From an uncultured Candidatus Binatia bacterium (GTDB lineage Bacteria > Desulfobacterota > Binatia > UBA9968 > JAJDTQ01), in NCBI GenBank assembly GCA_965242525.1, contig OZ251459.1, forward strand, positions 2,080,001 through 2,144,000: a stretch of 64,000 nucleotides of DNA. Direction: 5' to 3'. Both the position numbers and the translations under genes were made by a program. This document shows, in pieces, positions 1-20,961 of this stretch; the first letter of the stretch is position 1, and the number at the start of each line of letters is the position of its first letter. Under the pieces are notes generated by a model. It was not told the origin of the DNA. It made no database searches and worked only from the letters and a program-made list of their open reading frames with translations.

Positions 1-1
1 C

Positions 2-1276
2 TGGATCAGGAATTACCGGGTGTTGAGGCACATCGTACTCGGAAGACTAGCGTCTATGCGGCAAGCTCAACCCTTGACCCCGATAACCGCGGTGATTGGC
101 AAAAACGGGGTTGGCAAGAGTTCTCTATTCGATGCGTTCGGGTTTCTTTCAGACTGCCTGAAATTGGGCGTCGAAGATGCATGCGACGCCCGAGGACGGG
201 GAGGATTCGAGCGTGTCCATTCCCAGGGAAGCGACGGCCCGATTATCTTCGAGGTCTGTTATAGGGAAAATCCCCACAGCCAGCCCATTACATACGATCT
301 GCTGATCAAGAAAGACGATTCTGGCAGACCCTACGTAGAGCGTGAAATCCTTCACCAGCGCGATGAAGCACAGGGAAGCGGCAGACCTTTTTTCATCTTC
401 ACAATGCATCAGGGTCAAGGATACGCCTGGAAAGGGTATGCCCAAGGGCAACAAATTGAAGAGAACGATCCCATTCTATCGGATCTGATGGCATTGCCTG
501 ACCAGAGCAAGGATCAATCGACCGGCGAGAACGGCACAGAAAGGGAAGACTTCGAACTCCATGACAACCGCAAACTCGGCATCGCAACCCTCGGCGCGTT
601 GAGGGATCACCCTCGGATCGCGGCGTTTCGCCAGTTCCTCGAAGACTGGTATCTGAGCTACTTCACGCCGGACGCGGCCCGCGGTCTGCCCTTGGCCGGT
701 CCCCAGAGGCGCTTGAACGTCCACGGCGACAACCTCGGCAACGTCGTCCAGTTCATGCAGCGTGAACACCCCGACCGATTCAAGACCATCCTGGAGCGGA
801 TTGCCAAGCAGGTTCCGGGCATCGACCGCATCGACACGCAACAAAGCCCGGACGGGCGGTTGCTGCTGCGCTTCAACGACAAGGGCTTCACCGACCCGTT
901 CTACGCGCAACAGATGTCCGACGGGACCTTGAAGGTCTTTGCTTACCTGTTGATGCTGCACGATCCGTCGCCGCCGCCGTTCATCTGCATCGAGGAACCG
1001 GAGAACGGCCTGTACCACAAGCTGCTGGAAGTCCTAGCCGCGGAGTTTCGCAGCCGCGCCACCGGCGAACAGAACACGCCGCAGATCTTCGTGACCACCC
1101 ACCAGCCCTATCTCATCGACGCGCTCACGCCCGAGGAAACCTGGATCCTGGAAAAGGGAGAGGACGGCTTTGCGGCCATCAGCAGGGCCAGCGACGACCC
1201 GACGGTCAGGGCCATGGTGGAGGAGGGGTTGCCGCTCGGCAGTCTGTGGTACAGCGACTACCTGGACCCGAGGTAG
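2..1276 (+). CDS. AAA_21/ABC-type ATPase (defence-associated), 5' end outside window
   Basis: Walker A GKNGVGKS, signature MSDGTLK, Walker B ICIEEPENGL, H-loop VTTH; frame is open from base 2 (WIRNYRVLRH, the typical N-terminal strand), so the true start is upstream. Confidence 0.9.
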   Translation, partial: WIRNYRVLRHIVLGRLASMRQAQPLTPITAVIGKNGVGKSSLFDAFGFLSDCLKLGVEDACDARGRGGFERVHSQGSDGPIIFEVCYRENPHSQPITYDLLIKKDDSGRPYVEREILHQRDEAQGSGRPFFIFTMHQGQGYAWKGYAQGQQIEENDPILSDLMALPDQSKDQSTGENGTEREDFELHDNRKLGIATLGALRDHPRIAAFRQFLEDWYLSYFTPDAARGLPLAGPQRRLNVHGDNLGNVVQFMQREHPDRFKTILERIAKQVPGIDRIDTQQSPDGRLLLRFNDKGFTDPFYAQQMSDGTLKVFAYLLMLHDPSPPPFICIEEPENGLYHKLLEVLAAEFRSRATGEQNTPQIFVTTHQPYLIDALTPEETWILEKGEDGFAAISRASDDPTVRAMVEEGLPLGSLWYSDYLDPR

Positions 1277-1280
1277 GCCG

Positions 1281-1934
1281 GTGCATTTCGAGGTGCTGGC
1301 GGAAGACAGGTCGGAGAGCATCGCGCTCGAACACGTCCTGGAGAAGATCCTTGGCCCGAACAACGCCGCCCATTCCTGGAGGGTCCATCCCTACAGGGGT
1401 ATCGGGCGCATTCCGAAGGACTTGCGGAGCGGAAAGGACCCGAAGAAACGGCTTCTCCTGAATCGACTGCCAGGAATCCTGCAAGGATATGGGCGCAGCC
1501 TCGGCGACATGGGCCCTGCCGCGGTCATTGTCGTCGTCGATTCGGACGCCAGGGATTGCAGGGCGTTCAAGCGGGAACTGCTCCACGTGCTGGACGCCTG
1601 CAACCCTCGCCCAAGGACGCTGTTCAGGATCGCCGTCGAGGAAAGCGAGGCGTGGCTGTTGGGAGACCGTGACGCAGTGAAGGCCGCCTATCCCGGCGCA
1701 AGGGATTCCGTTCTGGACGGGTACGTGCAGGACAGCATATGCGGCACCTGGGAACTGCTTGCGGACGCCATCCATCCCGGCGGGTCGCCGGCCCTTGGGA
1801 AGTGGCCCGCGTCCGGGCAGGCGAAATGCGAATGGGCCGAAAGGATCGCCCCTCGGATGGACGTGGACCGCAACCGGTCGAGGAGCTTCCGGGTCTTTCG
1901 AGACGGGGTTAGGAAACTTGCGGGAATCTGCTAG
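1281..1934 (+). CDS. DUF4276-family (TOPRIM/RloB-like) putative nuclease partner
   Basis: GTG 4 nt after ATPase stop; FEVLAEDRS, VVVDSD, EESEAWLLGD, NRSRSF motifs. Confidence 0.8.
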   Translation: MHFEVLAEDRSESIALEHVLEKILGPNNAAHSWRVHPYRGIGRIPKDLRSGKDPKKRLLLNRLPGILQGYGRSLGDMGPAAVIVVVDSDARDCRAFKRELLHVLDACNPRPRTLFRIAVEESEAWLLGDRDAVKAAYPGARDSVLDGYVQDSICGTWELLADAIHPGGSPALGKWPASGQAKCEWAERIAPRMDVDRNRSRSFRVFRDGVRKLAGIC

Positions 1935-1984
1935 AAACACCGGACGCCCCCCGGCGGTGCTAAGGCAAAGCAAGGGTTAGTCCC

Positions 1985-3328
1985 ATGGACCGGATCACAC
2001 TGAAGAACTTCCGCTGCTTCCGCGAGGAGCAGACCGCCCGCCTTGCGCCCCTGACCCTGCTCGTGGGCGAGAACAGCACCGGCAAGACCTCCTTCCTGGC
2101 CCTGATCCGCGCACTGTGGGACGTGGCCTACCGGTCTCGCGTTCCCGACTTCAAGGAAGACCCCTATGATCTCGGCAGCTTCGACGAGATCGCCCATCAC
2201 CGGGGAGCACGGGGAAGCAGAGCAGAGACCTTTGAGGGCGGGTTTGATGTTACCCTGGAGAAAGGACGAAGTGAACTGACAAACCGCTATCGGTTCGAGG
2301 CAACCTTTGGGAAAGAGGGCGTCGTTCCCGTTCCCGTGAGGAGGTTTCTTTCCGATATGGATAAGACTGGTTGGGTCGAATATGGCTCTCAAGAAGATCC
2401 AATCCGTTTCGGCACCACCAGGGGCGCTTGGGCGTGGAAAGATCTGGATGGTTTCAACCGTCAATTGAAAAAGGATGACCGCGTACTTCCGTTCTACCAC
2501 CTTGTTATGAGCAGATACCGACGAAGAACACCCCTTGATCTGACGACGCTGGACGGCCCAAAACAACCAAGCAGCAATGATTGGAAAGTGATCGACCTGA
2601 TTTGCGATGCTATGGCCTCCTTCATCAACTTCCCGGAGCGGCTGTATGCTGGCGCTCCGGTCCGCTCCAAGCCGCGCCGAACATATGACCCTTCACGTAC
2701 CACACGAGACCCTGAAGGCGATTACGTCCCGATGTATCTTGCCCATGTACACTTTCAGGACAAGGAAAAATGGAACAGACTCAAAATTGCCCTCGAAAAC
2801 TTTGGGAAGGCATCCGGCCTCTTCAACGAAATATCGGTGAAGCCTTTGGGCCACAAGGAAAGCGGACCCTTTCAGATACAGGTCAGGGGGTTCGGGAAAG
2901 CGAGGCGAAAAGGACCGCAACGGAACCTGATCGACGTGGGCTATGGCGTCAGCCAAGTACTGTCGGTTATCATCGAACCCCTACGTAGCGACGCCCCGCA
3001 AAGGTTTCTGCTGCAACAGCCCGAAGCGCACCTCCACCCCAGCGCCCAAGCTGCTCTCGGAAGCCTGTTCTGCCAAATCGCCGGACCGGAACGTCAACTG
3101 GTGGTCGAAACGCACAGCGACCACCTGATCGACCGTGTACGCATGGACGTGCGCGACGGCAAGACAAAACTGAAACCCGAAGATGTTTCCATTCTGTACT
3201 TCGAGCGGAACGATTTGGATGTACACATCCATTCCTTGCGTTTCGATGAAGACGGGAATGTCCTGGACGCTCCCGATGGCTATCGTCAATTCTTTCTGGA
3301 AGAAACGCGAAAATCCCTGGGGCTGTAG
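1985..3328 (+). CDS. AAA ATPase with DUF3696-like C-terminus
   Basis: LKNFRCF, GENSTGKT, DVGYGVSQVL, LLQQPEAHLHP, VETHSDHL, C-terminal FDEDG..PDGYRQFF. Confidence 0.85.
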   Translation: MDRITLKNFRCFREEQTARLAPLTLLVGENSTGKTSFLALIRALWDVAYRSRVPDFKEDPYDLGSFDEIAHHRGARGSRAETFEGGFDVTLEKGRSELTNRYRFEATFGKEGVVPVPVRRFLSDMDKTGWVEYGSQEDPIRFGTTRGAWAWKDLDGFNRQLKKDDRVLPFYHLVMSRYRRRTPLDLTTLDGPKQPSSNDWKVIDLICDAMASFINFPERLYAGAPVRSKPRRTYDPSRTTRDPEGDYVPMYLAHVHFQDKEKWNRLKIALENFGKASGLFNEISVKPLGHKESGPFQIQVRGFGKARRKGPQRNLIDVGYGVSQVLSVIIEPLRSDAPQRFLLQQPEAHLHPSAQAALGSLFCQIAGPERQLVVETHSDHLIDRVRMDVRDGKTKLKPEDVSILYFERNDLDVHIHSLRFDEDGNVLDAPDGYRQFFLEETRKSLGL

Positions 3329-3331
3329 AAG

Positions 3332-3383
3332 ATGTGTGCAATCTTCCGTCGCAGTCATCGGGACATGCTGAGAAGGAACCCCC
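3332..3383 (+). pseudogene. Stub of ATPase partner gene (MCAI fused to a short tail), probable internal deletion
   Basis: ATG 3 nt after ATPase stop encoding MCAI-FRRSHRDMLRR; resembles, from recollection, the two ends of the small PIN-like genes that follow DUF3696 ATPases. Confidence 0.45.
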
Positions 3384-4505
3384 ATGCCAAACTTGATCGA
3401 ATCCATACACATCAGAGGCTTCCGCTCCCTTGCGGACGTGGAAATCAACGAACTGCCCCGGGCCGCGGTGCTGATAGGAGGCAACGGCTCCGGCAAGTCC
3501 AACGTCATTCGCTTCTTCGAGATGCTGAGCTGGATGCTGCGGTCTCGCCACCTGGGTGACTTCATAGAGCGGCACGGAGGCGCTGACAACCAGTTGTTCG
3601 GCGGGAGCAGGGTCACCGCCCGCATGGAGGCCACACTGACCATGCGCACCCCGGTGGGTCGAAACGACTATCGGTTCGCGCTCGCTCACGTCCACCCGGA
3701 CCGTTTCATCTTTGCGGACGAGGCGTTCCGCTTCAGCCGGGACGATCATCCCGACGAAGCCGAGTGGCAACACCTTGGGGGCAGCCATTCGGAAGCGAAG
3801 ATCGTCGAGGCCGCGCAATCGCCCCAGTTCGGGGGCAATCGGACCACGGCGCGGGTCCTCCTCCATCTCCTGCGCAACTGCGCAGTCTATCAGTTCCAGG
3901 ACACCTCCGACCGATCCGGTTTCAATATCCGATGGGACGCAGAGGACAATAACTACCTCCGTTCGGACGGGAGCAACCTGGCCGCGGTGCTGCTCCGCCT
4001 GGAACGCGAAGACCCTCAACGCTTCGAGACGATCTGCCGCCACGTCGAACGGGTGCTGCCGGTCTTCGACCGTTTCCGGATCGAAGACCGCTATGGAAAA
4101 GCCCTGCTCGGATGGAAGGCCAAGGGGATGGACAAGACCTTTGGCGCGCACCTGACCTCCGACGGCTCGCTGCGTCTCTTCGCCCTGGTGACGCTGCTGA
4201 ACCTCCCGCCCGATATGCTGCCCGACGTCATCCTGCTGGACCAGCCGGAGTTGGGGCTGCATTCCGCGGCAATCACCCTGCTGGGCAGCATGATCCGGTC
4301 GCTCTCCACGGACAGGCAGATCATCGTGGCAACCCAATCCCCCCTGCTCGTGGACGGGTTCGATCTCGACCAGATCCTGGTGCTGGACCTGCACGAGGGC
4401 CGGACGGAGGTCCGCCGGCTCGACGAAAACGACTACCGCCACTGGCTGGAAGAATACACGACAGGCGAACTGTGGCAGAAGAAGCTGCCTGGGGGGCGCC
4501 CGTGA
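3384..4505 (+). CDS. AAA_21 ATPase, paralog copy 1, Walker B E->Q
   Basis: GGNGSGKS, TSDGSLR, ILLDQPE, VATQS; highly similar to 4655-5776. Confidence 0.85.
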   Translation: MPNLIESIHIRGFRSLADVEINELPRAAVLIGGNGSGKSNVIRFFEMLSWMLRSRHLGDFIERHGGADNQLFGGSRVTARMEATLTMRTPVGRNDYRFALAHVHPDRFIFADEAFRFSRDDHPDEAEWQHLGGSHSEAKIVEAAQSPQFGGNRTTARVLLHLLRNCAVYQFQDTSDRSGFNIRWDAEDNNYLRSDGSNLAAVLLRLEREDPQRFETICRHVERVLPVFDRFRIEDRYGKALLGWKAKGMDKTFGAHLTSDGSLRLFALVTLLNLPPDMLPDVILLDQPELGLHSAAITLLGSMIRSLSTDRQIIVATQSPLLVDGFDLDQILVLDLHEGRTEVRRLDENDYRHWLEEYTTGELWQKKLPGGRP

Positions 4506-4623
4506 TCCATCTCGATACCGAAAGCCTCTTGACGGTCCTCTGGCAGCAACGCAGGTTGGCTTGGCCGCGATCCGCGCGCAATACCCGCGCTTCAACGATT
4601 GGGTGAGGCGCCTGGAATTGTAG
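4502..4623 (+). pseudogene. Internally deleted DUF4276 gene
   Basis: GTGATCC start overlaps ATPase stop as in the intact paralog 5773-6411; remainder encodes RYRKPLDGPLAATQVGLAAIRAQYPRFNDWVRRLEL*, matching that paralog's C-terminus. Confidence 0.85.
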
Positions 4624-4654
4624 TTTACAAGCGCCTGCTTAGCAGGAAAAATCT

Positions 4655-5776
4655 ATGCCGAACCTGATTGACTCCATCCACGTCAAAGGCTTCCGCTCCC
4701 TGGCGGACGTGGAAATCAATGAACTGCCCGGGGCCGCGGTGCTGATAGGATGCAACGGCTCTGGCAAGTCCAACGTCATTCGCTTCTTCGAGATGCTGAG
4801 CTGGATGCTGCGGTCTCACCGTCTGGGTGATTTCATGGTACGGCAGGGCGGTGCTGACGACCAGTTATTCGGTGGGAGCAAGGTCACTTCCCGTATAGAC
4901 GCCACACTGACCATACGTACCGAGGTAGGTCAAAACGATTATCAATTTGCACTCGATCACGTCCCCCCAGACCGCTTCGTCTTTGCGAAAGAGGCATTCC
5001 GCTTCAGTCGAGAGAATCATCCTCCCGAACCCGACTGGCAGCACCTTGGAAGCGGCCATTCGGAAGCGAAGATCGTCGAGGCAGCACAATCGTCCCAATT
5101 CGAGGGCAATCAGACGACAGCACGGGTCATCCTCCATTTACTACGCGGTTGCGCGGTCCATCAGTTTCACGACACCTCTGACCGATCGAATTTTAAGCTC
5201 AGCGGGGACGTGGATGAAAATAACTACCTCCGTTCGAACGGGAGTAATCTGCCCGCGATACTGCTCCGCTTGGAACGCGAAGACTTCCGACGTTTCGAGA
5301 TGATCTGCCGCCACATCAGCCGGGTACTGCCGGTCTTCGACCGCTTCCAGATCGAAGAGAGCTATGGAAAAGTTCTGCTCAGATGGAAAGCCAAGGGGAT
5401 GGATAAGACCATTGGGGCGCACTTGACCTCCGACGGCTCCCTGCGTTTCTTCGCCCTGGTGACGCTGCTGAACCTCCCACCGGAGATGCTGCCCGACGTC
5501 ATCCTGCTGGACGAGCCGGAGTTGGGGCTGCATCCCGCGGCGATCACCCTGCTGGGCGCCATGATCCGGTCGCTCTCCACGGACAGACAGATCATCGTAG
5601 CAACCCAATCCCCCTTGCTCGTGGACGGGTTCGATCTCGACCAGATTCTGGTGCTGGACCTGCAGGAGGGCCGGACGGAGATCCGCCGGCTCGACGAAAA
5701 CGACTACCGCCACTGGCTGGAGGAATACACGACGGGCGAACTGTGGCAGAAAAACCTGCTTGGAGGGAATCCGTGA
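4655..5776 (+). CDS. AAA_21 ATPase, paralog copy 2
   Basis: GCNGSGKS, TSDGSLR, ILLDEPELGLHP, VATQS. Confidence 0.9.
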   Translation: MPNLIDSIHVKGFRSLADVEINELPGAAVLIGCNGSGKSNVIRFFEMLSWMLRSHRLGDFMVRQGGADDQLFGGSKVTSRIDATLTIRTEVGQNDYQFALDHVPPDRFVFAKEAFRFSRENHPPEPDWQHLGSGHSEAKIVEAAQSSQFEGNQTTARVILHLLRGCAVHQFHDTSDRSNFKLSGDVDENNYLRSNGSNLPAILLRLEREDFRRFEMICRHISRVLPVFDRFQIEESYGKVLLRWKAKGMDKTIGAHLTSDGSLRFFALVTLLNLPPEMLPDVILLDEPELGLHPAAITLLGAMIRSLSTDRQIIVATQSPLLVDGFDLDQILVLDLQEGRTEIRRLDENDYRHWLEEYTTGELWQKNLLGGNP

Positions 5777-6411
5777 TCCGTCTCGCCCTTTCGGTAGAAG
5801 GTCTAACTGAGGAGGAGTTCGTCAAGTCCGTCCTTGCCGACCACCTGTGGACAGCGAAGGTTTATGCAATTCCGGTCAAGCTTGGCCGTGCTCGCGGTAG
5901 CGGTCCTGACGGCGGCAACGTCAGCGTTAAACGACTCGTCTCGGACATGAGCCTCCTGTACTGGTCCTTTGATTTCGTGACCTCACTCGTCGATTTCTAC
6001 GGATTTCGCGACAAGGGAAAAATGACGGTAGAGGAATTGGAGGAACGTCTCACCCGGGAAATCCAAGCTCAAATCCCTCGCGGTTGGGACCAGAGAAGGG
6101 TAATTGCCTATGTTCAGAGACATGAGTTCGAGGGTCTGCTGTTCTCGGACGTCACGGCGTTCGGAACCTCGATAGACGCATCGAACCAAAGCATAACGCA
6201 ACTTCAAGAGACTCGTTCAGCATTTCCGACGCCGGAAGACATCAACGACAACAAAGAAACGGCGCCGAGCAAGCGTATCGCGAAAGCCATATCGACATAC
6301 CAAAAACCTCTTGACGGCCCCCTGGTGGCAATGCAGATTGGCTTGGATAAGATCCGCGCACAATGTCCGCGGTTCAACGATTGGGTGACGCGCCTGGAGA
6401 CCCTGGCGTGA
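5773..6411 (+). CDS. DUF4276-family protein
   Basis: GTGA overlap with ATPase; VEGLTEEEFV, SLVDFYG, HEFEGLLFSD, PEDIND..TAPSKRI, CPRFNDWV. Confidence 0.85.
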   Translation: MIRLALSVEGLTEEEFVKSVLADHLWTAKVYAIPVKLGRARGSGPDGGNVSVKRLVSDMSLLYWSFDFVTSLVDFYGFRDKGKMTVEELEERLTREIQAQIPRGWDQRRVIAYVQRHEFEGLLFSDVTAFGTSIDASNQSITQLQETRSAFPTPEDINDNKETAPSKRIAKAISTYQKPLDGPLVAMQIGLDKIRAQCPRFNDWVTRLETLA

Positions 6412-6419
6412 CCGTGCCC

Positions 6420-7363
6420 ATGCTTCACAGGTTGTCCCTGCTCCATTTCCGAAGTCTTCCGGCTGCGGAATTGGAGTTCGACAACCCGACCTTTCTGGTG
6501 GGCCAGAACGGCGCCGGAAAGAGCAAACGAGATGCAACGGTCAACGAAACTGCTTCGACCGCTCGGAAGGCACATGGAAGAGCAGCGAAAAATCCTTGGA
6601 TCCGGCCTTGGAATCACGGTCCTTGGCCCTTCCGGTAGTCGCAGGCGACACGCGGTTTGCTGCGGTATGGCGGTTTCTGTCGGAGATGCGGGTGTACCGG
6701 ATCGAACCGGGTGTCCTCCGAGAGATGCAGGACCCGGATGGCGGGGGCCGGCTGCGAATCGACGGAAGCAACGCCGCGAGCGTGCTGCGCGAGATCATGC
6801 GCGATTCGCCGGACGACTGGGAGAACATCCGCGGCCTTCTCGAAAGTATCGTCCCCGGCGTGATGGACGTGAAACCGAAGAAGCTCGGCAACAAACTGGG
6901 GCTGGAGTTCACGCAGGAATGGCTGACGTCGAGACCCCTCAAGTTCGAGGCGTACAACATGTCCGACGGAACGTTGCGAGTCTTGGGCATGCTTGCCGCA
7001 GTCTTTCAACGGCCGGCGCCCTCGGCCCTGGTCATCGAAGAGCCGGAAGCCACGATACATCCCGGAGCGCTCGGCTCGGTGCTCGACCTGCTGCGACACG
7101 CAGGGCGCTTTACCCAGACGGTGGCGACGACCCACAGCCCGGATATTCTCGACGCCTCATGGATCGAGGATCGCCATCTACGGATCGTAGGCTGGGACCG
7201 GGGAGCGACACAGGTAGCGCCCGTCTCCGAACCTGTACGCAAGGCGCTGAAAGAGCACCTGATGGGCGCAGGGGAGATGATGCGCTCCAACGCCCTGACG
7301 GCCGCCGAAGGGTCCAACCCCGACCCGGCCGCAATCTCGTTGTTCGAGGATGTTGCCGAATGA
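6420..7363 (+). pseudogene. AAA_21 ATPase broken by deletion/frameshift after Walker A
   Basis: ATG 6420 gives MLHRLSLLHFRSL..GQNGAGKSK; the C-terminal half (MSDGTLR, VIEEPEATIHP, TTHS) is in another frame (ORF 6596-7363). Confidence 0.8.
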
Positions 7364-7455
7364 TGATCCAACCCCGCGCCTTCGGCGCCCTGCTGCGCGC
7401 AATGGGGCGGGAAGTGGCCCCGTGGCCTCCTCCCGCCTGGAGGGAGGAGGTGTAG
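7360..7455 (+). pseudogene. Stub of DUF4276-like partner (MMIQP fused to RAFGALLRAMG..PWPP tail)
   Basis: ATGA overlap with ATPase stop; 31 codons ending immediately before the DUF499 ATG and carrying its GGAGG RBS. Confidence 0.55.
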
Positions 7456-10257
7456 ATGGACCCCTGGTACAAGGTCGTCACTCCCCGCAAGGAGGTCCGC
7501 GAAGGCCGGTCGTTCAGCCCGGACGAGTTCGCCATTGCGCTGGAACAGGTGGTGGCCGGGACCGCGCCGCCGGACTACCGGGACCCGGCGCAGTTCTTCT
7601 CGCGCACCTGCTTCACCCGGGCCTTGACGGATCATTCCGGCATGGTGCTGCGGCGCCTGGCCGGACGGACCGAGAACACCGCCCCGGTGCTGACCCTGAT
7701 TACCCAGTTCGGCGGCGGCAAGACGCATACGCTGACCTCCCTCTACCACCTGGCCCGGTCCGGGGCCGGCGCGTCCGGGCTGCCCGGGGTCCCGGGGCTG
7801 TTGCGCGACGCGGGCATGGCCGAAGCTCCGGCCGCCCGGGTCGGCGTCTTCGTGGGCAACGCCTGGGACCCCGCGGAGGGGCGGGAGACGCCTTGGATCG
7901 ACTTGGCGCGCCAGCTTGCCGGCGACGCGGGGGCGGCCGCCCTCGGCCCCTCGGCCAGGGACACGCCGCCGGGGACCGAAGCGCTGGCCAAGGTGTTTGC
8001 GGCCGCGGGGGCGCCGGTGCTGCTGCTGTTCGACGAGGTGCTGAACTTCGTCAACCGCCACCGGGGCATGGCCGAGGGCTTCCATGCCTTCGTACAGAAC
8101 CTGACGGTGGCGGTCACCGGCGCGACCCGGGCCGCGGCGGTCATCAGCCTGCCGCGCAGCCAGGTGGAGATGACCGACTGGGACCAGCAGTGGCAGGACC
8201 GGCTCACCAAGGTGGTGCGCCGGGTGGCACGGGACTTGATCGCCAACGACGAGGCCGAGATCGGCGAGGTGGTGCGCCGCCGGCTGTTCGAGGACCTGGG
8301 CCCGGAGCGCGCCCGCAGGAAGGTCGCCCGGACCTATGCGGACTGGTGCTTCGAGCGCACCGCCCGGCTGCCCGCGGAGTGGACCGCGGTGGACGCCGCG
8401 GCCGAGACCCGGGCGCGGGACTTCCTGCGCGGGCGGTTCGAGGGCTGTTACCCCTTCCATCCGGCCACGCTGTCGGTGTTCCAGCGCAAGTGGCGCGCGC
8501 TGACGCAGTTCCAGCAGACCCGCGGCACGCTGGCCATGCTGGCCCAGTGGATCTCCTGGGCGGCCCGGGAGGGCTTCCAGCAGGCCCGGCGGGAGCCGCT
8601 CATCACCCTGGGGTCGGCGCCGCTGCATGTGCCGGAGTTCCGCGCCGTCCTCCTCGGCCAACTGGGCGAGTCGCGGCTCGACACCGCCATCGACGCGGAC
8701 TTGGCAGGGCTGGCCCCGCGCGCCAGGGCGCTGGACGTGGACACCCGAGGGCCGCTCCGGGACATCCATCGCCGGGTAGGCGCGACGATCCTGTTCGAGT
8801 CGTCCGGCGGGCAGGTGGACAAGGTGGCCCACCTGCCGGAGTTGCGCTTCGCCCTCGGTGAACCGGAAGTCGATACCACCTCCATCGACAGCGCCGCGGC
8901 GGCCCTTGAAGCCGCGGGGTTCTTCATCCGCAAGGTCGGCTCCGACGGTTTCCGCATCCACCACCAGGCGACCCTGAAGAAAGTGGCCAGCGACCGGCGC
9001 GCCTCCCTGGACGAGGAAACGGAGATCAAGCCCGCCATGCGGAAGCTGATCGAGGGCGCGTTCCAGCGCGGGGCCAGCGTGCCGCTGGTCCTCTTTCCGC
9101 AGGACGGCGCCGCGGTCCAGGATTCGCCCCGGCTGACGCTGGTGGTGGTGGACCCGGACGTGGAATGGGAGGGCCGGGGCGTCGAGCGCATCCGCAGGTG
9201 GACCACCGAGCGCGGCTCCTCCCCGAGGCTGTACCCGGGCGCGCTGGTGTGGTGCGCCAAGAAGCCGGGACGGGAACTGCGGGAACGGGTCGCCACTTGG
9301 CTGGCCTGGGAGCGCGTGGCCGGAGAGATGGCCGAAGGCGTCCTTGGCGCCGAGTTCGACCGGAGGGAACGCGACGAGTTGCGGTCCAAGGTCAGGGAGG
9401 CGAAGGAAGAGGCCGTGGACGAGGTGTGGGCCGGCTACCGCTTCGCGACGTTGACCGACGCCAAGGCGGAGACCGGCCTCAAGACCCTGGACCTGGGCGC
9501 GGGCCACGCCAGCGCCAGCGACACGCTGTGCGGGCGGGTGATCGGGACCTTGAAGGCCGAGGCCCTGCTGAACGAGTCGGTGGGGGCCGGCTACATCGAC
9601 CGGAACTGGCCGCCGGCCTTCGAGGGCACGGGGGCCTGGCCCCTGGCCGGCCTGCGCCAGAGCTTCCTGAACGGCTCGTTGACGCGGCTGCTGGACCCGG
9701 ACGCGGTTCTTCGCCGGAAGGTGGTCGAGTTCGTGGCCAACGGAGACTTCGGCTTGGCTTCCGGGGAAAGCGGCAACGGCCGATACCGGAGGGTGTGGTA
9801 CCAGGAGCCGGTGGCCCCGGAAGAGGTGGCCTTCGAGTCGAACGTCTTCCTGCTGGGCAAGGCCAGAGCCGAAGCGCTTCGAGCGCCCGAGACCCCGCCC
9901 GAGCCGCAACCCGATCTTCCTCCGGACCGGGACGACCGCCCCGAATTGAAGCCGGACCCCGATCCCGACACCCGGCCCGTCTCGCCCCCCGCGCAGACCG
10001 GGGGCGAGACGACGTTGCGGCTCACCGGCGTCGTGCCCCTCGAAGCGTGGAACAAGGTCGGGATCCGAATCCTGCCGAAGCTCCGGTCCGGCAACGATCT
10101 GAGCCTGGGCATCGAGTTCTCCGTGAACGTCGAGTCACGACTCTCCGGGAACCTGGAGTCGGAATTGAAACAGGCCCTCGCCGAACTCGGCCTCGGGGAC
10201 CAGGTGGACATCAAGAGCCGGGACCGAGGTTCCGAAGATGACCGAAAGACTCATTGA
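7456..10257 (+). CDS. DUF499-domain AAA+ ATPase (BrxC/PglY-related; restriction-like DUF499/DUF1156 systems)
   Basis: PWYKVVTPR..EFAIALEQV, TQFGGGKTH, LLFDE, YPFHP, FQQTRGTL motifs; strong RBS. Confidence 0.88.
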   Translation: MDPWYKVVTPRKEVREGRSFSPDEFAIALEQVVAGTAPPDYRDPAQFFSRTCFTRALTDHSGMVLRRLAGRTENTAPVLTLITQFGGGKTHTLTSLYHLARSGAGASGLPGVPGLLRDAGMAEAPAARVGVFVGNAWDPAEGRETPWIDLARQLAGDAGAAALGPSARDTPPGTEALAKVFAAAGAPVLLLFDEVLNFVNRHRGMAEGFHAFVQNLTVAVTGATRAAAVISLPRSQVEMTDWDQQWQDRLTKVVRRVARDLIANDEAEIGEVVRRRLFEDLGPERARRKVARTYADWCFERTARLPAEWTAVDAAAETRARDFLRGRFEGCYPFHPATLSVFQRKWRALTQFQQTRGTLAMLAQWISWAAREGFQQARREPLITLGSAPLHVPEFRAVLLGQLGESRLDTAIDADLAGLAPRARALDVDTRGPLRDIHRRVGATILFESSGGQVDKVAHLPELRFALGEPEVDTTSIDSAAAALEAAGFFIRKVGSDGFRIHHQATLKKVASDRRASLDEETEIKPAMRKLIEGAFQRGASVPLVLFPQDGAAVQDSPRLTLVVVDPDVEWEGRGVERIRRWTTERGSSPRLYPGALVWCAKKPGRELRERVATWLAWERVAGEMAEGVLGAEFDRRERDELRSKVREAKEEAVDEVWAGYRFATLTDAKAETGLKTLDLGAGHASASDTLCGRVIGTLKAEALLNESVGAGYIDRNWPPAFEGTGAWPLAGLRQSFLNGSLTRLLDPDAVLRRKVVEFVANGDFGLASGESGNGRYRRVWYQEPVAPEEVAFESNVFLLGKARAEALRAPETPPEPQPDLPPDRDDRPELKPDPDPDTRPVSPPAQTGGETTLRLTGVVPLEAWNKVGIRILPKLRSGNDLSLGIEFSVNVESRLSGNLESELKQALAELGLGDQVDIKSRDRGSEDDRKTH

Positions 10258-10763
10258 GCCATGAAACCCAGGAACGCGACGAGTCCAAGCACGATAGCCA
10301 ATGTCACGTAGCTGACCTGCTTCACCTTCTGTATCTGATGAAACTGACGTTCGACAACTTCCCCGAGCGCTCTTCGGGTTTCCTGACTACTCTCCTCGAT
10401 TCGTGTACCGACCTTGCCGATCTCATCGAACTGCTCACGCATGTGGCGTTCGACAACTTCCCCGAGCGCCCTTCGAGTTTCCTGACCGCTCTCCTCGATT
10501 CGCGCGCTGACCTTGCCGATCTCATCCAGTACGCCCCTGGGGTCGTGTCGCTTGAACGCCTCTACAGCCTCTCGAAACGACCCCAGGGCGCTGTGGAGAG
10601 ACTCCACGGCTCCTTTCGTCGATCTGGCGAGACTGCGGATGTCAGCGCCGGCCTTGGTCAGTGATTTTTCGAGAGAAACCTGCTGTTCGAGATGCCCGAG
10701 CAACTCCTTGACTCGCTTCTCCGTATCCGTGATCCGCTCGCTAACCTCTGTCATCAAGTCCAT
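10251..10763 (-). CDS. Coiled-coil protein with internal 33-aa duplication and C-terminal TM helix
   Basis: GGAGG RBS before ATG 10763; heptad-like composition; tail YVTLAIVLGLVAFLGF; start overlaps end of RecQ gene. Confidence 0.7.
   Translation of the reverse strand: MDLMTEVSERITDTEKRVKELLGHLEQQVSLEKSLTKAGADIRSLARSTKGAVESLHSALGSFREAVEAFKRHDPRGVLDEIGKVSARIEESGQETRRALGEVVERHMREQFDEIGKVGTRIEESSQETRRALGEVVERQFHQIQKVKQVSYVTLAIVLGLVAFLGFMAQ
10348..10527. repeat. 99-bp-period intragenic direct repeat
   Basis: GTTCGACAACTTCCCCGAGCGC at 10349 and 10448; encodes DEIGKV..RIEES.QETRRALGEVVER twice. Confidence 0.85.
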
Positions 10764-13700
10764 GTGAAACTCCTCCAAGCGCCCGCGCCACTCCCCGCGC
10801 GCCATACCCTTGAATCACGCGGTCCACCGCGGACTCCATCCTGTGGACCATTCCATGGAGTATCTGCGCTGTCATCGCCGCCGACACACGCGGGTCGGCA
10901 AGACCCCTCGCTCTCTCCCTTCCCCTTTTCAGAACATGCTCGAACTCGGTTCCCTCCGAGTCAAGATCAAGCAGAGCAACGGTCAAGGGCAAACCAAGAC
11001 CCGGTGCACGAGTGTGCGCAAAATCGAACAGACCGTCGATGACCGCGGCAACGTCTTCCTGCGCAAGCTGGTAATCGTGAATACCCTTGCGCATCGATGC
11101 GCCGATTCCCCGGGAGCTGACCCGATCGTCATGATCGGAGCACATCGATTCGGCAACGGCCCGCGCCAAAAGCAGCCCCGGATGGTCCGGATACGACTCC
11201 AGTGCGCGGATGCAGAGACCGCGCAACTCGCCCGCGTCCATGGGTGTCTGGACCTTGTAGACAAGCTCACTCCAGGCCGGCAGATCGATCTCTTCGTCGT
11301 CGAGCAGTTGGGCGATACGCTCGGCGCCGATACCCTCCTGAAGATAGTCGAGCAACCGCACGCGGATCTCCGCGTCATTCCTTGCCTGACGGGCCAGCAA
11401 GACGGATTCCTGAATCATCCGACGACGCGAACGCTCGATGACGTCGTAAGTAAACTCGATCAGTATCCGGGCAAGACCGGAAATGAGGTCGAATGGCCTA
11501 CCCTTGTTGATCTGCTCCAGCCTGCGAGCAACTATCTTGCTCTTTGCCGGTTGCGCTGCATGGATATGGTCAAAGAGTTTCTTCTTGCAGTGACCGAGAT
11601 CGAACGCCTTGACGTGGACGTTGAACTTGCGTGAGCCGTAGTCCACCTCATAGTCGTCAATCACCCCGATCCTAAGCAGCCGATGGATCGCCCTTTCCTT
11701 GTGAACCTGTTCGCTTTCGAAAGGCAACTCCACCAGTCGGCGTGCAGAGAGCTTGCCCATCTCTGTGAGAACGCCCTCAACGTCACTGAGTTCCTGATAG
11801 GCTCCGCTGAAAGATTGAAGATGGAACCAGAGAGATAAAGTCACGTCGTCTCCGGTCTTGCGTTGGTCGTTGGCTTGGTTGAAACGCTCACGGACCGTTT
11901 CGAGGTCGAGATCTGGATCGAGCAACTCGTCCGAGCGATTCGCATCGTACTCGGAAAACACCATGACACATCGAGCAGATTGTCGGTCTCTGCCGGCGCG
12001 GCCTGCTTCCTGATAGAAGCCCTCAAGCGAGGACGGCATACCAAAATGCACCGTGTAACGGATGTTCGGCTTGTCAATGCCCATGCCGAAGGCCTTGGTG
12101 GCGACAAGGACAGGTGCGCGGTTTCGCTTGAACTGGCGTGCGTTCTCGCGCTTCACGGCGTCCCAGGTGGCCTTGTCCTTCGATCTTGGCGGCAGACCGG
12201 AATAAACGGTGACCTGCGCGCCCGTCGCGGTTCTCGCGGCCGCGCGTGCATCGTCCACGCCGTGAACCCGCCCATTGACCGTAGGCACGAACACGATCCC
12301 GGACGCCGTACTGCGGCCAGAGGGATGGAAGAACTCCGTTCGCGGGAGTCCGAACTTTGCTGGCAGCTTGTTCAGGACGCCGCGAAGCGCCGCCGTTGCG
12401 TCTTCGCTTGGCGAGGTCCTTACGATTTCAAAGTGGAGTTCGGGGCGATCAAATGATTCAGGCCGAATTAGTGCGTCGGACCGATTCCGGTCGATGTCCA
12501 GCACCGTGAGCATGTCGATAAGGACCACACGCGAAGCCGTGCCGGTGAGGGCAAGGAGCGGAGGGATATTTTTCTCCCGGTCTGCACAGAAACGACGCAG
12601 GTTGTTTGCAAGATTGAGATACGCAGGTCTGAAATCATGCCCCCAATCCGATACACAGTGCGCTTCGTCGATGACCGCAAGATTGACAAGAGAGGTCTCT
12701 GCCAATGCCCGAAGGGTGCTTCGGAACTGCGGTGACTGCAATCGTTCCGGCGAAAGCAGAACGAATTGGTACTCGCCACGTTCGACACGCAACAGGACAT
12801 GTTTCCGTTCGACAGGGGTGGCGAGACTGCGGGCGATCGGCGCTGCACGATCGATTCCGTAAGCCTGCAACCCCTCGACTTGATCCTCGATCAAGGAAAC
12901 CAGCGGATCTACCACCAGCGTAATGCCCGGCATCAGAAGGCCGGCAAGCTGGTAGATAAGGCTCTTGCCTGCGCCGGTGGGCAGAAGCACCACACAATCG
13001 TTTTGGCGCAGTATGTTGAAGATTGCCTCTCCCTGGTTTGCCCGGAACTCGAACTTGCGGAAGATGTTCTGAAGGAAGGTCTTGAGAGGCGCATGGGCCT
13101 GATCGTAACTCGACGGTGCAATGGCCTTGCGCTCGAAGTCGAAGGTGTTCTCGGTTGCGAACGCCGCTGGCACGTATGCGGGTCGGATCACGAAATCCGT
13201 TCGCTCGTCGTGATGGACTTGATGAAATGGGCTTGCCGTGGATTCGACGACGATTCGGAGATCTTCACCCTGCGCTTCGCAGTCCGCGGCTTCACGCCAA
13301 CCACCATCGACGTCGCGAATCTCCGTTACCGTAAATCCGTCATCCGCTCGGACGGTGCAGCGTACCGGAACCGAACATCCGTCATACAGGGCATCGAATC
13401 CGCCAAGCAGCCTCAGTATATCCCGCACGCCTTGAGCCGCCACGGAACCGGCGCCGACCAGATCGATCCGCCATACCTCGTCAGCCGTCAGCCAACCAAA
13501 GGCGATAGCACGCGCTATGGCAAACTGCACCTTTGCAGCCACCGCACAATCGATGACGAAAGAAGCGAATTTCCTGTCCACGGAGGACGACCCGCAAGCT
13601 GTCAACGCACCCTCGCATCGGCGACGGATTTCGTCGAGAACTTTTCCGCTGCCGGAAACGACTTCTTCGTTGCTCACGCGAAGCACGTCGATGCCGATGT

Positions 13701-14610
13701 TGTGCAAGGACTCATCGCGCAGTTTATCGACAAGTTCCGACGAACCGTGTTCGGGGCCGTCTATTTCGATGGCGAGAGCAGAACCTCCGGGGTGATCGAA
13801 CAGAAAGTCAACACGTCGTGCGCTGCCGTCATCGTGCTCACCCGACGATTCGAGTAGCTTGTCGAGGGGAGCTTGAGGCGTGAACCAATGACCTGCTGGC
13901 GGCCCGAGGACGTCGGGAACCCAACCATCGAGGAAGCGCATCTCGGCATCACTGCCCAACAGTCCGGTTTCGGAACCGCGTACAAAACTGAATGCCGGGT
14001 CAAGGACAAAGGGCTTCCGCTCGGCAAGGACTGCCAACACATTCTCCGGCGTTACGGGTCGCCGTACTCCGGGCCGCAACTCCCAGCCAACCTCATGGCC
14101 TTCGACTTCGAGGTCCTGTACCTCGTCCATGAGTCCGTGCGCCTGGAGCGCCTCGCGTTCGACTTCGAGTGTAGGCAAGGGAGTCCGCCCGCGTTGCAGG
14201 ACCTTGACGAGCAGCGCGCTCACGAAGCGAGCGTGGTCCGACGGATGACGAGAGCGGCCTCGACCTGAAAGCACAATGCACTGGCTGAGAGCTTGCTCGA
14301 GACGTTTATCCTGATGCAATTGCTCTCGTAACAAGCCGGGCATGGCCCCAACCGATACGTACTCCGAGACGAAATCGAGGCGCCGGACACCCTCTTGCCA
14401 TGAGACGGGCAACGCTGCGAGGGAATGGGCCTTGACTTCCGCAGTTGACCCCACATCTGTTATCGGAGGCTGGTCTTCGGCATCCCGTGTTCCCCTGCAA
14501 TCCGGAAACCGCGTGCAGCCCCAAAAATGGCTGCCCGCTTTGCGGCCCTGCCTCGCGGTGCGAAGCGCCATCGGAGCAGAACACTTGGGGCAAGGAGGAG
14601 ATTCTGACAC
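10741..14610 (-). CDS. Topoisomerase-type C4 zinc ribbon + DUF559/Vsr-like endonuclease + RecQ-family helicase fusion
   Basis: CPKC..FWGCTRFPDC; RVDFL..AIEIDGPEH..RD..L..G..VLR; LPTGAGKSLIYQL, SPERL, IDEAHCVSDWGHDFRPAY, TKAFGMGIDKPNIR, YQEAGRAGRD. Confidence 0.88.
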   Translation of the reverse strand: MSESPPCPKCSAPMALRTARQGRKAGSHFWGCTRFPDCRGTRDAEDQPPITDVGSTAEVKAHSLAALPVSWQEGVRRLDFVSEYVSVGAMPGLLREQLHQDKRLEQALSQCIVLSGRGRSRHPSDHARFVSALLVKVLQRGRTPLPTLEVEREALQAHGLMDEVQDLEVEGHEVGWELRPGVRRPVTPENVLAVLAERKPFVLDPAFSFVRGSETGLLGSDAEMRFLDGWVPDVLGPPAGHWFTPQAPLDKLLESSGEHDDGSARRVDFLFDHPGGSALAIEIDGPEHGSSELVDKLRDESLHNIGIDVLRVSNEEVVSGSGKVLDEIRRRCEGALTACGSSSVDRKFASFVIDCAVAAKVQFAIARAIAFGWLTADEVWRIDLVGAGSVAAQGVRDILRLLGGFDALYDGCSVPVRCTVRADDGFTVTEIRDVDGGWREAADCEAQGEDLRIVVESTASPFHQVHHDERTDFVIRPAYVPAAFATENTFDFERKAIAPSSYDQAHAPLKTFLQNIFRKFEFRANQGEAIFNILRQNDCVVLLPTGAGKSLIYQLAGLLMPGITLVVDPLVSLIEDQVEGLQAYGIDRAAPIARSLATPVERKHVLLRVERGEYQFVLLSPERLQSPQFRSTLRALAETSLVNLAVIDEAHCVSDWGHDFRPAYLNLANNLRRFCADREKNIPPLLALTGTASRVVLIDMLTVLDIDRNRSDALIRPESFDRPELHFEIVRTSPSEDATAALRGVLNKLPAKFGLPRTEFFHPSGRSTASGIVFVPTVNGRVHGVDDARAAARTATGAQVTVYSGLPPRSKDKATWDAVKRENARQFKRNRAPVLVATKAFGMGIDKPNIRYTVHFGMPSSLEGFYQEAGRAGRDRQSARCVMVFSEYDANRSDELLDPDLDLETVRERFNQANDQRKTGDDVTLSLWFHLQSFSGAYQELSDVEGVLTEMGKLSARRLVELPFESEQVHKERAIHRLLRIGVIDDYEVDYGSRKFNVHVKAFDLGHCKKKLFDHIHAAQPAKSKIVARRLEQINKGRPFDLISGLARILIEFTYDVIERSRRRMIQESVLLARQARNDAEIRVRLLDYLQEGIGAERIAQLLDDEEIDLPAWSELVYKVQTPMDAGELRGLCIRALESYPDHPGLLLARAVAESMCSDHDDRVSSRGIGASMRKGIHDYQLAQEDVAAVIDGLFDFAHTRAPGLGLPLTVALLDLDSEGTEFEHVLKRGRERARGLADPRVSAAMTAQILHGMVHRMESAVDRVIQGYGARGVARALGGVSHGLDDRG

Positions 14611-14702
14611 GGTATTGTCGCCGTTCTGAACGCCGGAAGCCGGGAATCATCCCGGAGCGAGGCAGGCATGTACGGACACGCGCCCTGATGCTATGCGACC
14701 CG

Positions 14703-14731
14703 ATTATAGAGCCACGAACGGCCAAGCGCAA
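14703..14731 (-). promoter_or_regulatory. Sigma70-type promoter for the RecQ fusion
   Basis: Minus strand TTGCGC-17 nt-TATAAT about 90 nt upstream of start. Confidence 0.6.
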
Positions 14732-15032
14732 GTCACAGCCCGCCAACGAAACAAGGGAGCGACCCGGCATCCTTCCCGTCATGGTTGACCCATGCTGCGC
14801 AACGGCTGAATGGACCACGTCGACGGCCACGGCGTCCCTTCGGACGCCGAACGAGCTTCCCTGCTTTCAGGCATGGTCCGTGCCTGTCGGTTGCCCAGGA
14901 CCCGTCCTTGCAAGTATGATCAGAAGCGCGGTTCAGGAACGTTCCGCGTACCGTTTCCGACGGAAAGCTACGAGGGTGTCTCAGGGGCGTAAGCGCCGCG
15001 GACGGTCACCCTGGCCCCGCACCGAGGAACCC

Positions 15033-17783: not shown

Positions 17784-17842
17784 CCCTGCCCCGTCTTTTC
17801 GGGCGCTTCCGGAGTTCGTGCGAGTTGCGACACTCCCCATCC

Positions 17843-20068: not shown

Positions 20069-20161
20069 TTTCACGAAACCGGCGACCGGACGACGGTGCG
20101 GATCATCTCGGCACGGCCGGCTATGCGGAGCGAACAACGCCAGTTCGAGTCAGGTAGATGA
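20069..20161 (+). pseudogene. C-terminal remnant of BrnT-family toxin
   Basis: FHETGDRTTVRIISARPAMRSEQRQFESGR* (RIISAR motif); ATGA overlap with next gene; 5' part replaced by REP region. Confidence 0.7.
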
Positions 20162-20961
20162 GACGAGAGTACGACTTTTCCAAGGGTGAGCGAGGCAAGT
20201 TCTACCGCCAGGACGCCAAGGTGAACCTGCCGCGTCCCACCCGACGCCCTGTCTGGGCCGGTGGCGAGAACCGGATCGCCGACTTCATCACGGAGCAAAC
20301 CGAGAACACCCTCCGCGCCTATCGAGAGCAACCGAATCTCGTGACCGAGCACGCCAACCACGAGCACGATACGGCTCACGGCGGCTATGCCGATCGGCAG
20401 CTCTTCGAGTTGGTCCAGAACGGTGCGGATGCGCTGACCCACTCGGAGGGCGCGAGCATCCTGGTGCGCCTGACCGGGGAGTACCTCTATTGCGCCGACG
20501 ACGGAAAGCCCATCGACGAAGACGGTGTTCGAGCGCTGATGTCCTCCCACATGTCGAACAAGCGGGACACCGGCGAGATCGGACGCTTCGGACTCGGCTT
20601 CAAGTCGGTGCTGGGCGTCACGGACTCGCCCGAGTTCTACAGCCGTCCCGGTTCTTTCCGGTTCGACAGGAAATACGCCGCAAAGCGCATAGCCGAGGTC
20701 GCGCCAGCAGACCGCTATCCGGTACTCCGGTTACCGGTTCCGGTGGATGCCGGCAAAGCGTCGGAGGGAGACGAGGACCTGCGCGAGATGATGACGTGGG
20801 CGACGAACATCGTCCGCCTGCCCCTCGAACCGGGCACACGGGAAGACTTGGCCGAACAACTCAAGGCCTTTCTCCCGGAGTCCCTGCTCTTCGGCGATCA
20901 CGTCCGCTATCTGACCCTGGAGGACGGGGAGTGGTCCCGGGATTTCGCCTTCAAAGGGTGA
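20158..20961 (+). pseudogene. BrnA-like N-terminus fused to sacsin-type GHKL ATPase domain, truncated
   Basis: MRREYDFSKGERGKFY; FELVQNGADA, CADDGKP, IGRFGLGFKSV; stops right after the GHKL fold, with a short continuation in another frame. Confidence 0.7.

Follow-up and report, generated by a model that had tools for sequence, protein, structure and literature searches.

Why should three of five two-gene cassettes in a row each retain a vestige of the same half, a few first codons joined to a piece from near the end of the gene? The question is raised by a stretch of 64,000 nucleotides (nt) from an uncultured Candidatus Binatia bacterium (assembly GCA_965242525.1, contig OZ251459.1, positions 2,080,001-2,144,000), referred to here as the window. 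Its positions 1-7455 hold five two-gene ABC-ATPase/nuclease cassettes in a row, on the plus strand and 5' of hmaC. Cassettes 1, 3, 4 and 5 are of HEC-01 type and cassette 2 is HEC-03/Menshen-like (Table 1). By analogy with known systems, each cassette would combine an ABC-ATPase sensor or regulator with a nuclease effector. The original prediction, made from the letters of this DNA, held that repeated deletions had hollowed out the effector genes while sparing their first and last codons. Its core stands: the open reading frames (ORFs) at 3332, 4502 and 7360 are effector remnants that have lost their middle through internal deletions of about 0.4-0.53 kb. At issue are decayed members of known candidate defence families; the interest lies in the recurrence of the pattern, which suggests that the toxic half has decayed repeatedly, not that the system is of a new kind. 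The preferred explanation, to which a probability of roughly 0.7 can be attached, is that the remnants are ordinary, independent deletions that were kept inside a dispensable or costly effector gene and were then eroded.

The remnant in cassette 5 (stub 7360, positions 7360-7455) reads MMIQPRAFGALLRAMGREVAPWPPPAWREEV. A protein search with a 41-residue stretch of the window identified intact DUF4276 proteins of 209 amino acids (aa), P0242-P0247, which start with MMIQP; over their last 26 residues they share 88-96% identity with the stub (25 of 26, or 96%, in P0242). Because both the start and the tail match these proteins, the stub corresponds to their residues 1-5 joined to residues 184-209, codons 6-183 (534 nt) having been lost in frame. 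A profile hidden Markov model (HMM) of 58 intact partners from related loci matches the tail at positions 184-208 (E value 1e-4), with a score that was reached by none of 2000 shuffled sequences. In relatives, the partner gene usually has about 209 codons and starts 4 nt before the ATPase stop (most of the 80 loci described below); its product begins M-x-I-Q-P-I-V-E-G-H-G and ends with a W-P-P-x-x-W motif. The stub keeps this arrangement as an ATGA overlap with the stop of ATPase5, its own stop abuts the hmaC ATG, and its last codons include a Shine-Dalgarno-like AGGAGG, 6-11 nt before that ATG. Neither stub 7360 nor stub 3332 matched a PADLOC model, even at E<=10; the best PADLOC model for an intact partner (that of locus L009), PDLC04196, spans residues 2-191 of 209, leaving the C-terminal tail uncovered.

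What is left of the effector in cassette 3 lies in 118 nt (4506-4623). For this remnant, stub 4502, an intact paralogue is present in the window as the effector of cassette 4 (DUF4276-2, which has 3032 relatives at E<=1e-3). Breakpoints were taken from local alignment, since a global MAFFT alignment misaligned the tail of the two tandem copies. The left part of the stub matches the paralogue up to 5785 and the right part from 6287, so that 509 nt and a 2-nt gap (about 511 nt) are missing in comparison with it. The tail is identical to 6297-6398 at 85 of 102 nt (83%) and, read in its own frame, matches positions 190-224 of 230 in the HEC-01B model PDLC04188. The catalytic positions are all among what was lost: the deleted segment contains residues E9, G10, E13, D74, E118, E120 and E155, invariant in the DUF4276-2 family. 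The surviving tail carries Tyr at an invariant Cys (C198, Cys in all 70 aligned family members). The frame opened by the GTG at 4502 ends at TGA 4604-4606 after 34 unrelated codons, and the tail is in a different frame. The "VIHL + 36-aa tail" that had been proposed is therefore not one ORF, and stub 4502 is a frameshifted remnant, not a miniature gene. As for the microhomology suggested for this junction, the eight bases CCATCTCG (4507-4514) match each of the two sides at 7 of 8 positions, as judged against an 86%-identical paralogue. Cassette 3 was also considered as a plain tandem copy of cassette 4; this was rejected, the two being similar only from about 3366/4636 to 4616/6398.

The partner lost from cassette 2 is of another kind. 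A DUF4276 identity was tried and discarded in favour of a PIN protein (Pfam PIN, 7.6e-5 for the L008 homologue). ATPase2 has homologues in two of the 80 related loci, at 8060-9421 in L008 (62% identical) and at 15764-17104 in L009 (58%), and in both a PIN gene of 155-156 codons starts 3 nt after the stop of the ATPase homologue. Stub 3332 starts at the same 3-nt offset after ATPase2. The 120 best matches to this PIN family include 118 full-length members, all but one of which (117/118) share the MCAI start kept in the stub. Within the 55 nt that separate ATPase2 from ATPase3, MCAI is followed by about 9-12 codons from near the end of the PIN gene. For FRRSHRDML, the residues directly after MCAI, the best ungapped match in the family starts 19 residues from the C-terminal end, with a score reached by 2 of 2000 shuffles. 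The tail matches an HMM of its own PIN family only weakly (positions 138-150, E 0.11) and its DNA matches L009 17521-17545 marginally (score reached by 10 of 500 shuffles); the DNA of the head is too short to be informative alone (30 and 107 of 500 shuffles reach its score against L008 and L009, respectively). An alternative match, in which 3352-3367 would come from the end of the ATPase gene in L008, is not significant (160 of 500 shuffles reach the score). From about 3366 the DNA resembles the ATPase4 leader instead of a PIN gene; the last 8-10 or so PIN codons and the stop are gone and the ORF runs on into ATPase3, to 3559. The closest intact alleles for this stub are in relatives whose ATPase is only 58-62% identical. 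In L008, the order over 8060-12477 is ATPase2-like, PIN, ATPase5-like, DUF4276 and hmaC, all of which look intact (hmaC being read only to 12477). This is the gene order of the window without cassettes 3 and 4.

All three stubs thus match both ends of homologous genes, the tail of 3332 more weakly, and the original prediction survives the test that it had set for 3332 and 7360. The expectation that first and last codons are spared holds for all three heads but not for the end of 3332, which has lost its last codons and its stop. Similarly, the start overlaps or offsets expected to persist do so in all three stubs, but only that at 7360 retains its native stop in frame.

Loss of the partner gene is recurrent among relatives. 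A scan of genome contigs with P0001, an intact relative of ATPase5, matched 218 stretches, 187 of which encode relatives; the 80 best by ATPase match were retained. Among these best 80 of 187, the partner gene is intact in 58 and could not be assessed in four, where the contig ends inside it (L004, L040, L051 and L079). It is disrupted in 18 of the 76 assessable loci, 13 times by a large deletion. Both ends survive an internal deletion that is in frame in four loci (L002, L015, L048 and L076; the L002 tail has only 10 codons and is assigned by its W-P-P motif) and frame-shifting in three (L037, L042 and L078). Only a 5' piece is left in six (L001, L017, L020, L022, L023 and L067). The five small lesions are premature stops in L005 and L029, a stop near the start in L026, and frameshifts in L013 and L039. 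All breakpoints differ between the 13 large deletions, and the titles of the records name different phyla. Of the 80 loci, two have a frameshift in the ATPase (L037 and L039) and none a large deletion there.

The same fate has befallen a second type of cassette. In L043 (Latescibacterota), an ATPase3/4-type cassette has had its DUF4276 gene independently gutted at 13203-13400, between the ATPase and hmaC; 12 first codons and about 47 last codons of this DUF4276-2-type gene remain, in different frames. In the DUF4276-2 family, two of the 150 best-matching representatives (P0349 and P0341) are likewise internally deleted forms. In two further Latescibacterota loci, L022 (3493-3720) and L020 (11209-11400), the 3' part of the partner has given way to low-G+C DNA that the two loci share, and L020 lacks 61 nt kept by L022 at the same junction, which reduces the retained codons from 13 to 6. 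At the level of sequence, the step from L022 to L020 is an example of stepwise erosion. That effector genes are deleted repeatedly, within the limits of their own reading frame, is accordingly well founded: it is seen three times in the window, independently in relatives and once more in the second cassette of L043. As far as sequence comparison goes, it is established what the remnants are, how large the deletions are and how they affect the frame, that close relatives carry intact alleles, and that losses elsewhere were independent.

The ATPases that have lost their partner had been predicted to persist as orphan sensors. ATPase5 is instead a pseudogene. Compared with intact 399-aa relatives (P0001-P0006, 91-97% identical), it has lost codons 40-121, a net 244 nt, with a frameshift: in tblastn, residues 1-39 of P0001 align to 6408-6524 and residues 122-399 to 6527-7360 in another frame. 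The C-terminal fragment is still recognised as HEC-01A (4.7e-70; positions 145-392 of 399 in PDLC04178). In two cases the longest contig of such an ATPase and that of a 209-aa partner are of equal length (15718 and 20839), a hint, though no proof, that the two lie on one contig. Searches of plasmids with ATPase5 and ATPase2 (tblastn) returned only relatives of 25-33% identity, of no use for mapping the stubs.

A further allele is provided by P0241, a protein predicted on a 644-nt contig, which runs from the ATPase5 N-terminus into an out-of-frame ATPase end and from there into the same stub as at 7360; it is 96% identical over 70 residues to the read-through in the window. Since the 7360 junction is shared, P0241 represents a second allele with the same effector deletion and a larger ATPase deletion. 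The ends of the latter coincide with two near-identical stretches of 15-16 nt seen in the window. From the two sequences, this deletion and the 244-nt deletion of the window may be nested or independent, either of which fits. P0241 suggests that effector loss precedes or accompanies ATPase decay. In the window, an ORF of 307 codons (6532-7455) runs out of frame through the C-terminal fragment of ATPase5 into stub 7360 and has no family match; it is probably not a gene, P0241 being the same kind of read-through in another allele.

ATPase3 shows a different kind of change. Its Walker B motif has Gln at codon 287 (nt 4242-4244), giving D-Q-P-E versus D-E-P-E in ATPase4 and in the L043 homologue. 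The Walker-B Glu is the catalytic base of ABC ATPases. More generally, ATPases next to a large-deletion partner show a mean of 6.5 deviations versus 3.5 at 127 conserved columns (one-sided p=0.009, or p=0.036 with columns defined on all sequences), in a comparison that ignores shared ancestry. Taken at face value, these sequence differences point to relaxed constraint on orphan ATPases rather than to re-use. The broken ATPase5, the larger deletion of P0241, the Gln of ATPase3 and the excess of deviations beside deletions all speak against the proposed orphan sensors.

A preference for the effector is suggested by the relatives, where 13 of 13 large deletions fall in the shorter gene, a result with a probability of about 1e-6 if sampling was unbiased. 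Several observations weigh against a simple account of effector loss followed by decay. The 80 loci are the best of 187 as ranked by ATPase match, and of the 119 non-self ATPase clusters among the best 120 protein matches, 8 are truncated or N-terminally aberrant; the effector excess is therefore suggestive only. Within the window, three of four deletions are in effectors (p=0.11). The fourth hits ATPase5, and to this extent the idea that it is nucleases that are removed has to be narrowed. The ORFs of ATPase2 and ATPase3 are intact. Between ATPase3 and ATPase4, which are 86% alike, the ratio of non-synonymous to synonymous substitution (dN/dS) is 0.31, and lineage-specific residue changes number 21 in the former versus 19 in the latter, so that ATPase3 is not visibly decayed. 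All three remnants of the window keep 4-5 first codons, whereas five or fewer are kept in only one of 14 deleted partner genes of relatives. Erosion to a minimum of 12 or so nt is a conjectural account of this uniformity. Finally, microhomology can be read only at 4502, by way of an 86%-identical paralogue, which leaves its apparent length approximate.

Under the preferred explanation, deletions would arise by ordinary short-homology slippage or illegitimate recombination and would survive only when confined to the effector ORF, the 5' edge of which touches or overlaps the ATPase stop while the 3' edge lies beside the ribosome-binding region of the following gene or contains it. Nuclease loss would be tolerated or, if selection against toxicity is involved, favoured because the protein is costly. 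The orphan ATPase would then drift and finally be broken too. Remnants would shrink stepwise in the process, and old remnants would for this reason come to look alike. As two-gene systems, cassettes 2, 3 and 5 have most likely ceased to function; cassettes 1 and 4 and hmaC look intact from their sequences.

The original prediction offered another explanation, in which toxic nucleases are selected out, a short in-frame ORF is kept for translational coupling and orphan ATPases signal through the surviving DUF4276 effectors. Stub 7360, in frame between its ATGA overlap and the hmaC ATG, is what such coupling would leave, and in-frame remnants also occur in four relatives (L002, L015, L048 and L076). 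However, the frame is shifted in stub 4502, and stub 3332 runs into ATPase3 without meeting a stop. In-frame junctions make up 6 of the 11 that can be scored (p=0.12 for an expectation of one third; 5 of 8, p=0.088, for the ATPase5-type family alone), and six of the 13 large deletions in relatives removed the 3' end as well. With such p values, and with six deletions that took the 3' end, selection for coupling is not demonstrated, and the claim that coupling is preserved is not supported. The intact ORFs of ATPase2 and ATPase3, together with the dN/dS of 0.31 and the equal lineage-specific change of ATPase3 and ATPase4, could be taken as signs that orphan ATPases still work. Moreover, the last third of the ATPase3 and ATPase4 genes is unusually alike (synonymous divergence, dS, 0.19 versus 0.41-0.44 elsewhere; 94-95% versus 78-89% nt identity). 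This likeness may be due to gene conversion or to shared constraint, and would fit an effector-binding part common to both proteins. A predicted complex of two ATPase3 copies with DUF4276-2 (score 0.01, mark 0.32) argues neither for nor against binding. Given that ATPase5 is broken both here and in P0241, that ATPase3 has lost its Walker-B Glu and that ATPases beside deletions look relaxed, signalling by orphans combined with selection for coupling is unlikely. A variant, in which effector-first disarming by a cut 4-5 codons into the gene is a selected, recurrent stage in the life of abortive-infection cassettes and some ATPases are re-used (for example, ATPase3, with its Walker-B Gln and its ATPase4-like 3' third, as a degenerate subunit or second sensor for the remaining DUF4276 nuclease), is more doubtful still.

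The 4-5-codon design could also be the product of a dedicated or biased process that cuts effector genes a fixed short distance after the start. The design is found in three of three window remnants and one of 14 deleted genes in relatives, and the cut is in every case placed shortly before the first acidic catalytic residue. The pattern was chosen post hoc, however, and inspection by eye, without a formal test, detected no motif shared by the three junctions. Breakpoints are scattered in relatives and the ATPase5 deletion starts at codon 40, which makes a process of this kind improbable. A role for in-frame stubs as retained small proteins, with the C-terminal tail docking on the ATPase as one example, is even harder to maintain. 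The W-P-P..W tail is conserved across the partner family; the window, L002, L015, L048 and L076 all still have it, and P0241 carries the same stub. Yet the cognate ATPase is broken in both the window and P0241, two of the three window stubs cannot give an in-frame tail, and a docking role for the tail is conjectural. An origin of the deletions in assembly artefacts, or in minority variants taken into the consensus, is just as improbable. The analysis is of assembled sequence, and the likeness of ATPase3 and ATPase4 (86%) could have misled an assembler; against this, the 7360 junction recurs in the independent 644-nt contig, and similar deletions are found in many independent assemblies, some of them titled single chromosomes. 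In addition, 17 of 102 tail positions differ between stub 4502 and its paralogue, so the stub is not a collapsed copy.

The closest known systems are candidates found inside hma operons. HEC-01 (HEC, Hma-embedded candidate) combines an ABC ATPase and a TOPRIM-like protein of the DUF4276 family, and HEC-03 an ABC ATPase and a PIN protein; a HEC-01 representative gave no defence in E. coli against the phages tested (bioRxiv 10.1101/2024.01.29.577857). In the same study, Payne et al. allowed three embedded genes between hma genes and left out Hma systems in which the hma genes were pseudogenes (bioRxiv 10.1101/2024.01.29.577857). Cassettes 1, 3, 4 and 5 resemble HEC-01 in their matches to HEC-01A ATPase models, in their HEC-01B/DUF4276 effectors or remnants, and in their position beside hmaC. 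They differ in that a full-length DUF4276 gene is found downstream only in cassettes 1 and 4, with remnants in 3 and 5 and a broken ATPase in 5, and in that five cassettes stand in a row, compared with the three embedded genes allowed in that study. Cassette 2 is related to HEC-03 and to Menshen, where NsnB is a DUF3696-tailed ABC ATPase and its effector NsnC is encoded directly downstream (NAR 2025, PMC12065111). ATPase2 has the corresponding domains (Pfam AAA_15 1.1e-20, AAA_21 3.7e-15, and DUF3696 6.2e-5 at residues 396-432) and matches NsnB (2.8e-47) and a HEC-03 model. The difference is that its PIN gene is cut to about 13-16 codons. It does not belong to a Menshen system proper, because no DUF262/NsnA gene lies upstream of ATPase2, DUF4276-1 being found there instead. 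A looser analogy exists with PARIS (AriA with the TOPRIM nuclease AriB), Septu and Gabija, in which an ABC ATPase controls an adjacent nuclease (PMC12065111). The ATPases of the window also match AriA models in PADLOC. The effectors here are of DUF4276 or PIN type, and deleted, versus DUF4435 in PARIS, and HEC-01 is without demonstrated activity.

In toxin-antitoxin loci, the toxin can be lost while its partner remains as an orphan, and bacterial pseudogenes decay through a bias towards deletion. The present array recalls this in that the toxic partner seems to be lost first, after which the orphan would decay and remnants would shrink by successive deletions. It differs in that the survivor is an ATPase sensor, not an antitoxin, and in that both gene ends are kept inside an operon. 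A contrasting picture has been drawn for the hotspots of P4 satellites and P2 prophages, where "swap without pseudogenisation" is reported and less than 1-2% of pseudogenes are defence-like (NAR 2026, PMC13586616). Here, 18 of 76 related loci and three of five cassettes hold recognisable defence pseudogenes, in contrast to those hotspots (PMC13586616). A literature search, with supplements outside its scope, found no account of recurrent internal effector-gene deletion in these systems.

These loci show how abortive-infection-type cassettes die: here and in about a quarter of the related loci the nuclease is disrupted while the ATPase can still be read. Should an unbiased survey confirm the pattern, it would provide a measurable signature of the cost of the nuclease, and genome surveys would be warned not to score "orphan" defence ATPases as functional systems. 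The pattern would also stand in contrast to mobile-element hotspots, where defence genes are reported to be swapped without a pseudogene stage (PMC13586616). In annotation, remnant rather than gene is the fitting label for ORFs 3332-3559 and 6532-7455, and likewise for the short ORFs that begin at 4502 and 7360.

Table 1. Coordinates of the cassette genes, their remnants and the adjoining hmaC in the window
Feature	Position	Strand	Evidence
ATPase1, HEC-01A type	2..1276	+	Pfam AAA_21 7.4e-38; PADLOC HEC-01A PDLC04182 6.1e-180
DUF4276-1, cassette 1 effector, intact, 217 aa	1281..1934	+	PADLOC HEC-01B PDLC04205 1.3e-87 (residues 1-212 on model positions 1-211 of 213); Pfam DUF4276 2.2e-9
ATPase2, intact ORF of 447 aa, partnerless, NsnB/HEC-03-like	1985..3328	+	Pfam AAA_15, AAA_21, DUF3696; PADLOC NsnB 2.8e-47
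PIN remnant, head, start and three codons (MCAI)	3332..3343	+	MCAI start in 117/118 full-length homologues
PIN remnant, tail piece, about 9 codons, in frame with head	3344..3370	+	matches near PIN C-terminal end
ATPase3, HEC-01A type, paralogue of ATPase4, intact ORF	3384..4505	+	PADLOC PDLC04175 9.5e-113
DUF4276 remnant, head, GTG overlapping ATPase3 stop	4502..4514	+	local alignment to paralogue 5741-5785
DUF4276 remnant, tail, last ~36 codons and native TAG	4515..4623	+	PADLOC HEC-01B PDLC04188, E 6.5e-10
ATPase4, HEC-01A type, intact	4655..5776	+	PADLOC PDLC04175 9e-118
DUF4276-2, cassette 4 effector, intact, 212 aa	5773..6411	+	Pfam DUF4276 3e-49; PADLOC PDLC04188 2.4e-64
ATPase5, N-terminal fragment, codons 1-39 up to P-loop, GTG overlapping DUF4276-2 stop	6408..6524	+	tblastn, P0001 residues 1-39, 95% identity
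ATPase5, C-terminal fragment, codons 122-399 and stop, other frame	6527..7363	+	tblastn, P0001 residues 122-399, 97% identity
Cassette 5 DUF4276 remnant, in frame	7360..7455	+	codons 1-5 at 7360-7374; codons 184-209 and stop at 7375-7455
hmaC (DUF499 ATPase of Hma system), intact	7456..10257	+	PADLOC HmaC 1.2e-87

The upstream end of the window cuts the locus at position 1, which falls inside the ATPase1 gene, so that this gene lacks its 5' end and hmaA and hmaB lie outside. At the other end of the array hmaC adjoins it at 7456; its product is 62-73% identical to the 12 best matches shown, out of 15 loci with a match. A promoter and terminator scan of 1200-7700 gave one promoter-like site versus 1.4 expected, with no sign of promoters in the tails. 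The G+C content is 53-66% in the cassettes and about 72% in hmaC.

Beyond hmaC, a minus-strand helicase gene (10741-14610) converges on it. The 1289-aa product combines a zinc ribbon at its N-terminus with a nuclease-like DUF559 domain and a DEAD/Helicase_C core; its best PADLOC matches are to DpdF models, not Hma models. Further downstream, an ORF of 267 aa (20158-20961) matches only the first 230-260 or so positions of TmtA models of 1300-1800 residues (5.2e-45), with a Sacsin domain below the Pfam cut-off (32.5 versus 32.8 bits). It is perhaps a fragment, perhaps a stand-alone domain. Over 1-17800 the G+C content forms a mosaic, with about 54-63% at 10000-15000 and 67-74% in the housekeeping genes that start at about 15000. 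Between hmaC and the helicase gene, a minus-strand ORF of 184 aa (10251-10805) with a hydrophobic C-terminal end has no Pfam or PADLOC match; within it, 57 nt are directly repeated (10345-10401 and 10444-10500, 91% identical), giving a 33-residue tandem repeat in the protein.

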